Source: Escherichia coli (GTDB lineage Bacteria > Pseudomonadota > Gammaproteobacteria > Enterobacterales > Enterobacteriaceae). From it: a stretch of DNA of 64,000 bases. How positions within the stretch are numbered: position 1 is the stretch's first letter; every line of letters starts with the position of its first letter. Location: assembly GCF_003334765.1 (NCBI RefSeq), contig NZ_QOWT01000018.1; one strand, written 5' to 3'. Made by a program: the position numbers. This document shows, piece by piece, positions 54,001 through 60,000 of this stretch.

Positions 54001-57000
54001 GCGTGGCTGACTGGCTGCTGTCGAAGATGGTGGAGCTGGCCTGGTTTCCCCAGGAAAGGCCGTAAATCTTCCCTGCTGAAATGGCGGTCATCGGCCCTAA
54101 GGACTGCAAGTTCCAGGTGTCGAGCATTCCACCGGCAAATCGGTGACCGGCAAAATCGCGTTCATACATCGCTTTATATAATTCACTGTCCTGTTGACCG
54201 CTACCGATCCCGTACAGCGAGCCGTCGAGCACCACATGATGTTCGCGCAGTGCAGTAACGTTATTCAGCGACAGATAGCTGGATGTGTTGCTCCCGCCGT
54301 TACGCAACTGGTTGTTATAGACGCCCAAGTTATAGCTCAGATTACTGCTGAGGGTGTTAACACTGGACTGCCCGATGTCTTCGCTACGTGAGCGTAGTAC
54401 GGTGCCCAGCGCTTCGCGCTTGACCACTAGCTGCAGCAGCAGTTGGCGCAAGCTGAGATCCAGCTGCGCGTTGTCAGTCAGGGGGATGGTAAGGGCCTCA
54501 TTGAACGGGGCGTTGGCCAGAGCCATCAGCTGCTGTCGAGTTTGTTCGCTGACACTGGCGTTATCTTCACTCTCTTCCAGCTGTATTTTCCGGATGCGTA
54601 GCTGTCCATCGTCCAGCCAGATAAAAGCGCTGCCGATTCGCTGATCGTCCTGGCGACCCTGGCTACCGGCGAGATGAATATAGAGCGGGACGCTCATGCC
54701 GTCCTGAAGCGCCTGACTGAAGGCCTGCGGAATAATCACCCCACCTATTTGCTGCGCACTTATGTCAGCAGCGCTGGCATCGGGCTGAACGAACAAAAAG
54801 ACCATGCCGAAGGCAAACTGGGCTTTCAGTCCTGGGGAGAACCGTCGTAAAGGCATTGTCGTTATCCATCTGCACAGCTATCTATTTCACGGGAATGAAC
54901 TTATCACCCTGCCAAAGTGCAACCCGTCCTTTGTTATCCGCAGTATCCACGCGGGTAAAACGACGCGACTTGCCCGGCATCAGGTAGTAATTCTCTTTAC
55001 ACTCCTTACCGTTGGCGGCTTTCAGGCAAGGTCCGTAGGCGAGGATCCGCAGCGTCGCATTTCCTGTATTTGTCAGGGAGCCGTTGGCGTACTGAAAGTG
55101 GTAGTTCGCCTGACGAGGGGCGACGACCAGAATGGTGCCGATGCGGGCGGAAGCAGTGGCCACAGCGCTGCGGTTGGCATTATCGCGCTGCGCATCACTG
55201 AGGGCCTGATCAAACCAGACAATGCGGTAGTAGCGCTCTTTTTCATCTGCGGGTCCCTTATAGAAGAAGCGGATCACTTCGCTGGCTTGGGCGGGTAGCA
55301 GCAAGCTGGCGGGAGTGAGTAGCAACTCATCCGGCTTGTCCATTGAGATAACCTGCCCGTCGTCAAGCGGTGAAGAGAGCCGTTCGAGACGGATATTGAT
55401 AAGGCGACCACTGTCGGTACTGTTTTTGATCGTTTTGCTCAGCGTGCTGCTGTCACTGTTCATAAACGATGATATATCGCCGACATCCAGCGCCTGGGCC
55501 GGAGATATTCCGGAAAACAGCAGAGCGAGAGGCAGAAGGTGCTTTTTCATAACAATTCCGTCCAGGAATAAAGCAGGGGGGCTACCCCTGCTGGTACATC
55601 AGAGAGATTAACTGGTCCAGGTCGCGTCGAACTGTACGCTAACGTCGCCGCTCCAGATGCCTTCCGGTAGAGTGCTGTAATCTGTTACTGCGGTGGTACC
55701 ATTGGTGGTACCGCTGATGATGGAGAAGGTGAAACCATCCTGTGCGGTGGTACGATTGCTGGCATTGTAACCGTTAGCCAGCGGGCTAAGGTTGCCGCCC
55801 AGTACGCCGTTGGCGGTATCGATCATCACGGTATCGCCAGTTTTTTCGACTGCCGCGCCGTTATAATCCACGCCCACATTCAGTGTGGAACCTGAGGTAT
55901 CCAACTGGGTTAATGTGTTGGTGATAAGACGTGAGGTCAGTTTAAAGGCGGTAGCCGTTGAGTCACCCTCGATAGCCACGTCAAATAGACCTTTCTGTGA
56001 GTTAAAACCTTTAATGCCTTCGGCATACTGGAACGCCAGGCTACCGAGTGGCGTCACAACCAGCTTACTGGTGGTGTCTTTTTTGGCTGTTGCCGACCAG
56101 GTCGCTACAGCCTGAGCTGTTACGTCAGCAGCCTGCGCCACACCCATGCCGGTAAACACCGTTACCAGAGCTATTGCCAGAACCTTTTTTTTCATTGCAT
56201 TTCTTCCCGAGTTGAATTGAGGACGTGATGTCCCAGTGAGTCATTTTTTAAAACTAACTTGCCTGGAGTTTACTGAACCAACTTATATATTTTTGAGTAC
56301 AGCTTGGCCTCAGCATTACGCCGATGGGTATACACTGTCTTCACACTACAATTTTCAATTCTGGCAATCGATTTAGGTTGCATTCCCTGGGCCGTCATGC
56401 GGATAATTTCCATTTCCCGGTCCGTGATTTTATCTTTCTTAATATCTTTTCTCAGGAACCTGCCATTAATCACATAGACCAGTTCTTTTCTAATATCACG
56501 ACTCAGTCCAGCGTATACCACGCCCCTAATATTGCTATTGTAATACCAATAATTTGCTAAGGCCTCTGACTTTCTGGCCGCAATCAATACGACCTGTTTC
56601 CCCTTTACCGCGGATAACCATTCATTATCACGGTTTATAAATTCAGATAAAGAATCCGTACTGAGATTGATAAACACGAAATCTTTTCTAATTTTCTCCA
56701 ACGATAGATAAATTAATCTGTCGATATCCACAATCAGTTCAGATAGTCCTTTATAGAAGTAGGCGTCATGGGGAGACCAGATGTATTTATCAGAACGGTT
56801 TTGACATTCCATATGGTTTTTAACCTCATAGTCCCTACTGTAATCACTTTGCCATGTCACTACTTTCCAAACCTGTAATTTTTACAGGTGCATTCAGTTT
56901 CCTTAGTAAACCGGAAGTAAATAAGATACGTAGTACATATCAATAAAGGTTAAACGAGATTAAGTTTAATTATTTTCGATTGGGCTTAAATTTATGTTTT

Positions 57001-60000
57001 TTTTCCCGATGAGTGTCAATATGTGAACGGAAAAGGAATTCAATGGTTAAGTCAATATTTAGAAAAACTGAAAATATTGCTTTTTTGATAAGAAGAAAAA
57101 GACATTTGGTTTCATAAGGTTATTGGCAATATAACGTTCAATTCTTACTTGCATTTTATATTGGTCAGGAACTTTGCCCTGAAGTGTTAGGAATAGTCTT
57201 AATGCGCTGTGTGATGGACTAGTAAAAAAACAAGTTTTAAGGGTAAGGGATAGAATATAAAACTATGATGAGCTGTCATTGAAGATGATTTGCCAATCAG
57301 TAAGATATTTTAATGGATTAACATGCCGCACAAAATGGTTACAGGTGTTCATTCCAATAAGTAATGGAAAATTGAACGGGCGTATGTACGTCATCTGTTC
57401 GGTAAGCCCCCAAGAGCCAGATTAAGTGAAGTTAAACGAAGGCTGCCAGCTGTCACAGGAACGATGGCCTTTTTGTCAGGGCACTGCATTCAGTTATCTG
57501 TGCGCGTTACTCTAACTGGCACTCGAACGTCGGCGACGGGGTTACCGGTGGATCAGACTGTTCCTGTGGCGTAAACGTTTTTATGTTAGTACCAACAGAT
57601 TTACCACATTTATCATCTTAACAGTTTGAGTGAAAATGCAGGCTGCGCCGCAAAGGGAGGAGACTGAGTGGCGTGTTCAGTCTAAAAGAGGGTTGATGCC
57701 AGCATACAGGGGCGAAGCTGGTCAACAAGTCAACATTAAGATAATGGAATATTCGGAGAGAAACGTCAGGCAGTTGGCCTCAAATGAACAGGAAGAATAT
57801 ATCCCCAGGAAAATTAATGTTGGTGTTATAAACACACCAACATTAATTCGATCTGATTATTAATCAGACAAATATCGTTAATCCGTCGAATTTTGAATCA
57901 ACGTTTTTTCTTACGACCCTGAACGGCCTTAAAACGTGGATTAGATTTACAAATCACATATAGCCGTCCTTTTCGCTTCACAATCTGACAGTCTGGATGG
58001 CGTTCTTTTGCGGTACGCAGAGAGTTAAGAACTTTCATCACGCCCCCTTTTTCGTGCTAACAAAACGACCAAAACGTTGGGTGAATCGTGCAACATTTCC
58101 TTCTGATGCCACTGTTCTCAGCTTCCCTGTATAGAACGGGTGCGATTTAGAAGAGACATCAATTGTCACGTATGGATACGTTACGCCATCCAGCTCAATC
58201 TCACGGTCTGTTTTGATAGTCGAGCCGATTTTAAAGTACTCATCAACACTGGTGTCGTGGAACACCACAGTACGATACTCAGGATGGATATTGGGCTTCA
58301 TCATTTTTACCTGTTATGTTATAACATAACCATAAAGATACATGCTCATCCGGATCATTTCAACACTCAATCCCTGTGACTCTTTGTGGATGTGGAATTT
58401 TCGCAACGGGGAACTCTGGCATTGTTAGCAGCCATTGGTGACGCTCCCATAAACGCCTGGATGAGTGATTGATGATGGTTTTGCTGAGAGTATGGATTTT
58501 TCGAGAATGGAGGTTATCTCCACTTTACTGGCCGATAATTTATCGCAGTATGATTGATTACCTGACAGCGTGTATTCCTCTCCCACGGATATAATAATTA
58601 CTTACAAAAAAGGGAGAGGATGCATATTTTAAATATCACTGAAGTGAACAGTTTATTTCCGTTATTAATAGAAATGGAGAAATAAATAGGCGTATTCTAC
58701 AATTGCGACAAAAACAACGATATTAATCAGTTTATGACTGATTTGCTGTACTTTATTCTCTTTCATTGGTACTTCCTCGCTTTAAAAAAGAGTGCACTTC
58801 GTAAGTGCCCTTATATAAATAACGAGTTTGGTCAACCAATTTTTTGACATGTATCACAAATTTGAATAGATGTATTACATCAACTATCTTTTATTGCACC
58901 AACGTCATTGATATATGTCGCCTGAAGTCAGTTCCGGGAATGAGTCTGATCTCAAGACTGGCCCAGTCCGGGCGTTGATTGGTGCTGAGGAGCATATCGC
59001 ATCTCATCATAATGTCGTATCTCCTGGGGTGTTATACAAGATATCGTTGTTGGTGACCTGGGAGAGGAATTGAGTTCTATTAAACCGTCAACTATGCCGG
59101 ATACATACTGGATTACACTGCAGGCACGCCTTATGAGAGAACGTGCCGCAGTGACGGGTTAATTATCTGAAAGAATTTGTGAGGCTGTATCGGTTACTCA
59201 TTGATTTGATAGTTTTACTCTCGGGAGAATAATAGATATTTAATCCATTAACGGAAACCAGCCAGTTCCTTTCGATGCCTGAATTTGATCCCATAGTTTA
59301 TCCGGAATGGTTAATTCATGAACAAGTTGTGTTATCGTTCATGAGAAGCATAACGTAAAGGGAAAAGCTCGATTAGACGGCAGAATTTGTCAGGGGTTAT
59401 GAACGAAATTCATAAATCTGTTTGAGTGTTGCGATGGGTAGTGCAAGTTCGATATCTCCGCAATTTACAGTCCGATGAAGGAAAATGAATATCCATAAAA
59501 AATATATTGGTTTATCCTGGCATATATACCTATTTCGACGTATTTCCAATAGTTTTAATTAAAGGCAGGTCATTGTTATTCACTCTGAATAGTGAATTAT
59601 TCACTGTCCGCAGAGTAAGAAATATAACTTAGGTATCTATTTAATGACTTGCACAAAAAGCTAAATTTTCCCCCATAAATAAAAATATAATCCCGCGCCC
59701 AACCACCTGATGAGTGGCTATAGGCACTGGATATATTAGGTGGCGGTGCACTTTCTTACATAAAGGTATTTCCTTTTCTGCGGAAAAGGAAATCGGGAAA
59801 TCCCCGGTTTTTCTGACAAGCAGACGCCATTATTTGTGTCTGCCTATGTTCGTTAATTCGTTCATCAGGAAATTATCTCAATGTCACATTATAAAACAGG
59901 TCATAAACAACCACGATTTCGTTATTCAGTTCTGGCCCGCTGCGTGGCGTGGGCAAATATCTCTGTTCAGGTTCTTTTTCCACTCGCTGTCACCTTTACC

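Follow-up and report, generated by a model that had tools for sequence, protein, structure and literature searches.

The intergenic regions around the ecp, ykg and fdeC genes of Escherichia coli have close relatives among described systems. Several precedents exist for the region that controls the ecp (mat) pilus genes and for its 'promoter island' (Martinez-Santos 2012; Lehti 2012, 2013; Panyukov and Ozoline 2013). The ykgMO genes, which code for L31B/L36B, are repressed by Zur via a Zur box (PMC9825181). YkgR (NF041474; Hemm et al. 2008), a small membrane protein of 33 amino acids (aa), is induced in the stationary phase, is inserted post-translationally by the signal recognition particle, and is cleaved by RseP (PMC7549839, PMC10470546). 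The nearby ykgP is a pseudogene in K-12 and in the annotation by the Prokaryotic Genome Annotation Pipeline (PGAP), and matches the C-terminus of a flavin oxidoreductase of the Old-Yellow-Enzyme type. The adhesin FdeC (EaeH) is reportedly regulated by H-NS and temperature in enterohaemorrhagic E. coli (EHEC) (Easton 2014, cited in PMC11143625). In the present study, these systems were compared with two long stretches poor in open reading frames (ORFs) in a 64,000-nucleotide piece of E. coli DNA (contig NZ_QOWT01000018.1 of assembly GCF_003334765.1), the whole of which is referred to as the window hereafter. The two stretches are interval 1 (56861–57630), located upstream of ecpR, and interval 2 (58340–59880), which extends from ykgM to fdeC.

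With a probability of roughly 0.9, both intervals are ordinary, already described parts of the K-12-type ecp–ykg–fdeC locus. Over 4757 bp, the window and K-12 MG1655 share 99.98% identity, and a 3.8-kb query was found in 5116 of the 5426 complete E. coli genomes, in many of them at 100%. According to the RefSeq annotation of K-12 and of a strain identical to the present one, the locus has the order ecpR(matA)-ykgL-ykgO-ykgM-ykgR-ykgP-fdeC(eaeH). On the K-12 MG1655 chromosome, the two regions correspond to 311337–312111 and 312778–314356. The content of the two intervals is already annotated or published, namely, the ecp region with its promoter island, the Zur-controlled ykgMO promoter, ykgR, ykgP, and the fdeC promoter region. 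Interval 2 is a composite of the Zur box and the ykgMO promoter, ykgR, a stump of ykgP, a deletion junction, and the fdeC upstream region. It looks empty because ykgR lies under the cutoff of 60 aa that was used for ORFs, and because a deletion has fused two spacers there. The anatomy of the intervals, the junction, the Zur box, the family membership and conservation of YkgR, and the lack of Rfam RNAs and of conserved small ORFs other than ykgR were obtained in the present analysis. What they add to the published content is an explanation for the size of interval 2, as well as the finding that a search for more conserved small ORFs or for known RNA families came up empty.

An earlier note on this DNA had drawn attention to the two intervals as long, AT-rich, and ORF-poor, with homopolymeric tracts, and this description was borne out. 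The two longest stretches in the window that carry no ORF of at least 60 aa are 58380–59713 (1334 bp) and 56861–57629 (769 bp), and the third-longest is 417 bp. Only the limits of interval 2 had been drawn slightly too wide, as a 79-aa ORF antisense to ykgM extends to 58379 and a 97-aa out-of-frame ORF begins at 59714. The GC content is 0.368 in interval 1 and 0.389 in interval 2, as compared with 0.506 in the whole window, and equally long windows with a GC content as low account for 2.6% and 5.1%, respectively. It is unevenly distributed in the intervals: the cores have values of 0.30–0.35, while 'islands' with values of 0.48–0.49 are seen at 57400–57630 and 58900–59160. Runs of A or T of at least 5 nucleotides (nt) occur at 10.4 per kb in interval 1 and 5.8 per kb in interval 2, against 3.7 per kb window-wide, and are thus 1.6–2.8 times denser; the A-tract counts are near the prediction based on the composition. 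When the dinucleotides were shuffled, 48% of the trials for interval 1 and 13% of those for interval 2 contained no ORF of at least 60 aa. The missing long ORFs are not surprising in non-coding DNA of such composition; it is the amount of non-coding DNA that is unusual.

The size of interval 2 can be understood by scrutinizing the region around the ykgP pseudogene. The stump of this gene (59240–59329, minus strand) consists of the last 30 codons and the stop codon of a gene for an NADH-dependent flavin oxidoreductase. In NC101 and O157:H7, where this gene is intact and 1143 bp long, its 3′ end is collinear with the stump. Immediately beyond the stump lies the deletion junction (59330–59332): the match to NC101 (phylogroup B2) breaks off at 59331 and is taken up again after a gap of 6231 bp, and the gap in O157:H7 amounts to 4715 bp. 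The NC101 block carries the genes for the oxidoreductase, an alpha/beta hydrolase, two LysR regulators, and two aldo/keto reductases. The contiguous (deleted) form was found in 2813 of the 5093 E. coli genomes that match interval 2 (approximately 55%), while in most of the remaining genomes the match ends at 59331, within an intact gene for the NADH-dependent flavin oxidoreductase. A deletion of 4.7–6.2 kb in the K-12-type lineage removed these metabolic and regulatory genes, and fused the spacer between ykgR and the oxidoreductase gene, with the ykgP remnant in it, to the spacer upstream of fdeC. For this remnant, the exact junction and the size, content, and frequency of the missing block were worked out in the present analysis.

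The reverse course of events was also considered: interval 2 would have started out in its short form, and the block of 4.7–6.2 kb would have been inserted later in B2, E, and other strains. The site is indeed plastic, since the block varies by lineage, with six genes in NC101, a shorter form in O157:H7, and a rearranged form in divergent Escherichia. However, the 30 codons and the stop codon of the stump are kept in register, and the window resumes 15 bp upstream of the start codon of an aldo/keto reductase gene. Neither repeats nor mobile-element ends were found at the junction, where the microhomology is limited to 1 nt. An insertion would not make a truncated gene end in the 'empty' allele, and because this allele holds precisely such an end, its origin lies in a deletion and not in an insertion in the other strains; we regard the insertion as exceedingly improbable.

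A divergent Escherichia strain that is labelled E. coli, SCPM-O-B-8794, shows a further peculiarity near this site. It is 77–85% identical to the window from ecpR to ykgR, and 96.7% identical over 90 bp beside the aldo/keto reductase gene (window 59331–59420; 2760–2849 of the locus sequence). This suggests that the aldo/keto reductase gene block may have been recently exchanged between lineages.

The second component that makes interval 2 look empty is ykgR (58665–58766, minus strand), which is annotated by RefSeq in K-12 and in the identical strain. The earlier note had proposed that small proteins below the ORF cutoff could be encoded in the intervals, and ykgR, which is already annotated and studied, is such a case. 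The 33-aa sequence, with its single hydrophobic segment, is identical to the K-12 protein, from which it shows no difference, and the position of the gene between ykgM and eaeH/fdeC is also unchanged. Against the equivalog model NF041474 of NCBIfam, YkgR scores 78.1 bits, where the cutoff is 40, and residues 1–33 align to positions 1–33 of the profile. The divergence of ykgR between phylogroups A and B2 is 0%. The gene is intact in NC101, in E. albertii (four conservative changes), and in divergent Escherichia (five conservative changes), and the C-terminal VEYAYLFLHFY is invariant across those Escherichia sequences.

A block directly upstream of ykgR (58767–58860, minus strand) is the best-conserved non-coding stretch of interval 2 among five Escherichia sequences, with a divergence of 2.2% between A and B2. 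It contains a Shine-Dalgarno sequence (GAGGAAG), a hairpin followed by a T-run (58808–58784), an AT-rich −10 region, and a CRP-like site. The last of these, TGTGA-N6-TCAAA (TGTGATACATGTCAAA; 58858 to 58843, minus strand), is centered approximately 84 bp upstream of the ykgR ATG, and in the five sequences its half-sites are invariant while its spacer is variable. In the window as a whole, the count of near-consensus CRP motifs is not above chance. The hairpin upstream of ykgR was considered as a terminator or an attenuator, and was rejected because its stability is not unusual (z = −0.3). On the 3′ side of ykgR, a 9-bp G+C-rich stem with a long loop is found at 58576–58620 (minus strand). Its fold has a z value of −3.5, none of 200 shuffles being as stable, and the arms of the stem are retained, with changes, in E. 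albertii and divergent Escherichia. This hairpin, which has no U-tract, is probably the 3′ stem-loop of the ykgR transcript.

Two alterations were seen in this part of the locus in O157:H7 ATCC 43890. One is that ISEc8, an insertion sequence (IS) of the IS66 family, lies between ykgM and ykgR, at a position corresponding to approximately 58471 in the window (3651–5963 of the locus sequence). Another is that ykgR is frameshifted by a 1-bp deletion (6201–6301 of the locus sequence), so that YkgR would be dispensable in that lineage.

At the left edge of interval 2 and next to it, the control elements of ykgMO are found. The Zur box that serves as the ykgMO operator (58312–58331) contains an exact TGTTATGTTATAACA at 58312–58326 and an overlapping copy; the chance expectation for a Zur match of this type in the window is 0.49. 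The consensus scan gave the ykgMO promoter TTGAAA-17-TATCTT at 58335–58363 (minus strand), for which identical hexamers and an identical spacer have been published (PMC3946193), and the Zur 15-mer is located shortly downstream of its −10 hexamer. Homology to 78 loci from other genera spans ykgO and ykgM and ends 30–60 bp upstream of ykgM, just past the Zur box. What the window shares with the described Zur-repressed ykgMO system is thus the palindromic Zur box that overlaps the promoter and is conserved with the genes across Enterobacterales; this control, however, takes up only the first 60 bp or so of interval 2. There is a hint that more of the spacer matters, since the inclusion of the whole upstream spacer in a ykgMO reporter resulted in a background expression 68% lower (PMC10410751), which is compatible with silencing over the spacer. 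In addition, the ykgM/ykgR spacer is labelled HNS in a table of genomic SELEX (systematic evolution of ligands by exponential enrichment; PMC3946193).

The right part of interval 2 is the upstream region and leader of fdeC (59332–59880, 549 bp), which was formerly the divergent spacer between an aldo/keto reductase gene and fdeC. It is collinear with the 565-bp spacer of NC101, and its proximal 250 bp or so are more conserved than the distal part. The region was found in 5038 of the 5426 E. coli genomes. It has in common with the H-NS- and temperature-regulated fdeC (eaeH) promoter the AT-rich upstream region of about 550 bp. It differs from the fdeC system in that the divergent partner, the aldo/keto reductase gene, is deleted in the window strain and the fdeC frame is interrupted. 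As for this frame, a first ORF of 1012 aa has its end at 62919 and is followed by one of 182 aa at 62924–63472, while the fdeC of NC101 has 4251 bp (1416 aa). PGAP classifies fdeC (59881–63472) as a pseudogene in the identical strain, and the eaeH of K-12 has an IS3 insertion instead.

Within the fdeC leader, a perfect 11-bp inverted repeat (59768–59793), a second short hairpin, and a T-run make up the segment 59768–59815 (plus strand), which is located approximately 70–110 bp upstream of the fdeC ATG. Its fold has a z value of −2.7, and 1 of 200 shuffles was as stable. The stems are invariant in three phylogroups, and the two changes observed affect the loop of the first hairpin and the junction of the hairpins. 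A repeated GGAAAT unit would permit alternative pairings in this segment. All but five of the matching records of the fdeC leader have identities of 95% or more, and in the two other Escherichia loci fdeC is not the neighbouring gene; no covariation signal was obtainable in the leader because the diversity of E. coli is too low. These structures raise the question of whether the intervals contain control devices that have not been described: the segment 59768–59815 may act as an attenuator or a regulator site in the fdeC leader, and/or the site at 58843–58858 may belong to a CRP-dependent ykgR promoter. We consider this rather unlikely.

A different question is whether further functional genes are hidden in the intervals, either an unannotated small RNA (sRNA) or small ORFs other than ykgR that are translated. 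A conservation test was applied to the 44 ORFs of at least 20 aa in the aligned portions of both intervals, and ykgR was the only one that was both conserved beyond E. coli and coding-like. Several ORFs of 20–53 aa are intact across the compared E. coli strains, but all of them except ykgR and a 34-aa ORF at 57013–57117 (plus strand) are broken in divergent Escherichia or E. albertii; in interval 1, every small ORF other than 57013–57117 is broken in divergent Escherichia. The 34-aa ORF itself is intact in four of four sequences because it overlaps the conserved −35 region of the ecp promoter. It was rejected as a gene, having 2 synonymous against 11 non-synonymous changes and no Shine-Dalgarno sequence. 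The small-ORF search with a conservation filter that the earlier note had called for thus retained ykgR and yielded no other conserved small ORF.

Its suggestion of sRNAs did not hold up when Rfam 15 was searched permissively (E up to 1) over 55500–60500 on both strands, since no family was found. Three hairpins in interval 2, at 58576–58620, 59116–59153, and 59768–59815, are more stable than shuffled sequences, which speaks for such hidden genes. However, they lack the pairing of promoter and terminator of a stand-alone sRNA gene: among 7 promoter-like and 5 terminator-like sites, none showed the layout of a promoter and an intrinsic terminator around a conserved stretch of 50–400 nt. In the RefSeq annotation of K-12, no other gene is present in either interval. 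The existence of such hidden genes therefore seems quite improbable, and the reading of the intervals as known parts of the K-12-type locus is retained.

The second of the three hairpins lies in an E. coli-specific spacer of approximately 290 bp (58948–59239). It is a strong G+C-rich hairpin (59116–59153), with z values of −3.3 (minus strand) and −4.2 (plus strand), which accounts for the GC 'island' in this region. Its stem is identical in the window, NC101, and O157, changes occur only in the loop, and a U-tract is lacking. It is located approximately 90 bp downstream of the oxidoreductase stop codon and is likely to be a relic 3′ structure of the oxidoreductase gene. Part of this hairpin (ACGCCTTAT) recalls the repetitive extragenic palindromic (REP) elements, and no second copy of it was found in the window.

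The GC islands at 57400–57630 and 58900–59160 were also considered as decayed genes. This was rejected, as no homology was found outside E. coli by tblastx against 80 Enterobacterales loci, by blastn against plasmids, or with NCBIfam. The plasmid matches to the islands are E. coli records with identities of at least 98%, some of which are labelled K-12 and several of which are megabase-sized; they are taken to be copies of the chromosomal locus. A search for self-similarity and repeats gave short inverted repeats only.

Interval 1 serves the ecpR(matA)-ecpABCDE pilus operon as its long upstream control region, and it shares with the described ecp/mat region the AT-rich core at ecpR, the promoter 121 nt out, the far-upstream TTCCT pair, and two phylogroup-linked types, although the assignments of the boxes and the start site were read here from the sequence and not from the original figures. 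Its sigma-70 promoter (56990–57019, minus strand), a good one, consists of the −35 hexamer TTGACA (57019–57014), an 18-nt spacer, and the −10 hexamer ATAAAT (56995–56990). According to the literature, 121 bp separate the ecp promoter from the start codon of ecpR (Martinez-Santos 2012, quoted in PMC10038029). When 121 nt are counted from the GTG at 56860, the position 56981, just downstream of the −10 hexamer, is reached; the ecp transcription start is thus predicted to lie near 56981. The ecpR (matA) 5′ leader from this inferred start to the GTG (56861–56981, minus strand) has a length of approximately 121 nt and a fold z value of −2.3. Both hexamers are unchanged in strains of phylogroups A, B2, and E and in divergent Escherichia, whose identity to the window is only about 77% in the ecpR–ykgL spacer. 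The consensus promoter scan missed this promoter owing to its rules for the −10 hexamer. The start of ecpR is annotated in two ways, as ATG 56812 (PGAP, 180 aa) and as GTG 56860 (K-12, 196 aa), and the published distance of 121 bp agrees with the hexamers only when it is counted from GTG 56860.

Approximately 190–210 bp upstream of the promoter, a TTCCT-N17-TTCCT pair (57167–57193, minus strand) provides candidate EcpR boxes; it is kept in three E. coli sequences, with one change in divergent Escherichia. This pair fits the two distal EcpR boxes that are reported for the operon. The segment 57201–57400 of the ecpR–ykgL spacer is hypervariable and separates two haplotype groups of E. coli: the divergence between the window and NC101 (B2) is 12–16% there, as compared with 1.4–2.9% in the neighbouring genes. 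For the best match to interval 1 per record (n = 5065), the identity is at least 95% in 2871 records and 90–95% in 2194. The ecp control region of E. coli thus occurs in two versions that are deeply divergent. The regulation of Mat fimbriae is reportedly associated with the phylogroup (Lehti et al. 2013), in agreement with the difference between A and B2 in this spacer.

A promoter island designated 310529_398, called with the PlatProm algorithm and assigned to ecpR(−)/ykgL(+), is one of 78 such islands, and the entry 'A' in its H-NS column means that it is bound in all three chromatin immunoprecipitation data sets (PMC3661553). In the window, it corresponds to 56829–57227, which takes in roughly the first 370 bp upstream of ecpR, and forms the lowest-GC core of interval 1 (GC 0.30–0.31). 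Its coordinates were mapped from U00096.2 to the window via the K-12 alignment, with a version shift that we assume to be +776 bp, and the limits are good to a few bp. On the evidence of the literature and of the near-identical K-12 DNA, this AT-rich core would be coated and silenced by H-NS, and EcpR/MatA, with RcsB and the integration host factor, would counteract the silencing of ecp. A review counts MatA among the auxiliary regulators of RcsB that H-NS represses, and names low temperature, acidic pH, or acetate as inducers of matA (PMC5651002). The earlier note's description of both intervals as H-NS-type regulatory DNA agrees with the published binding or repression by H-NS for each of them, but it does not apply to interval 2 as a whole, which is not one regulatory region.

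Several points weigh against the view that both intervals are ordinary parts of the known locus. One is that H-NS binding, transcription, and translation are borrowed from the literature on K-12 and EHEC. Another is that the described promoter island differs from what is seen here in two respects. The consensus scan of 56200–60000, a simple tool and not PlatProm, gave 7 promoter-like sites, as compared with 11.5 ± 2.7 in shuffled sequences, so that no excess of promoter-like sites is seen with this tool. In addition, the helical phasing of A-tracts (9.5–11.5 bp) is no higher than in shuffles (p 0.6–0.85), and the claim of curved-DNA-like tracts in the earlier note failed on this result. Curvature is frequent at H-NS sites, yet it is not a requirement. 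The high-affinity H-NS motif TCGATAAATT was matched loosely at five places in interval 2 but nowhere in interval 1, which is uninformative. The last points are that the three stable hairpins, whose roles we infer, and the CRP-like site are left unexplained, and that the 290 bp or so of 58948–59239 have no assigned role beyond one hairpin.

The two gene deserts beside the pilus operon and the adhesin gene need no new type of element, and in this respect they matter little. The general points are that an ORF cutoff of 60 aa conceals known small proteins such as YkgR, that a long stretch free of ORFs can turn out to be the scar of a deletion that joined two spacers, which a comparison of strains reveals at once, and that an AT-rich spacer next to a horizontally acquired adhesin gene is usually a control region bound by H-NS. 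The absence of the six-gene block of oxidoreductase, LysR, and aldo/keto reductase genes is a common polymorphism, seen in approximately 55% of the matching complete genomes. This polymorphism and the two versions of the ecp control region may be of interest for work on phylogroup differences in adhesin regulation.

The annotated genes that border the intervals are ecpR (minus strand; 56270–56812 in PGAP, or to 56860 with the K-12 start), ykgL (57636–57863, plus strand), ykgO (57898–58038, minus strand), ykgM (58038–58301, minus strand), and fdeC (from 59881, plus strand). Among them, ykgL is 7% divergent between A and B2, against 1.4–2.9% for its neighbours, is frameshifted in NC101, and has no match in NCBIfam. 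In O157:H7, it is represented by a shorter hypothetical protein, and E. albertii keeps only a C-terminal remnant; ykgL thus looks like a decaying or doubtful gene. Insertion sequences were also observed in other strains: IS1A in interval 1 (56861–57635), and IS5, IS903B, and the ISEc8 of O157 in interval 2 (58302–59880). Finally, transposases of the IS3 family were found within the wider match to 56200–60000 in the genomes of ML35, YZ_2_2, and AH21.

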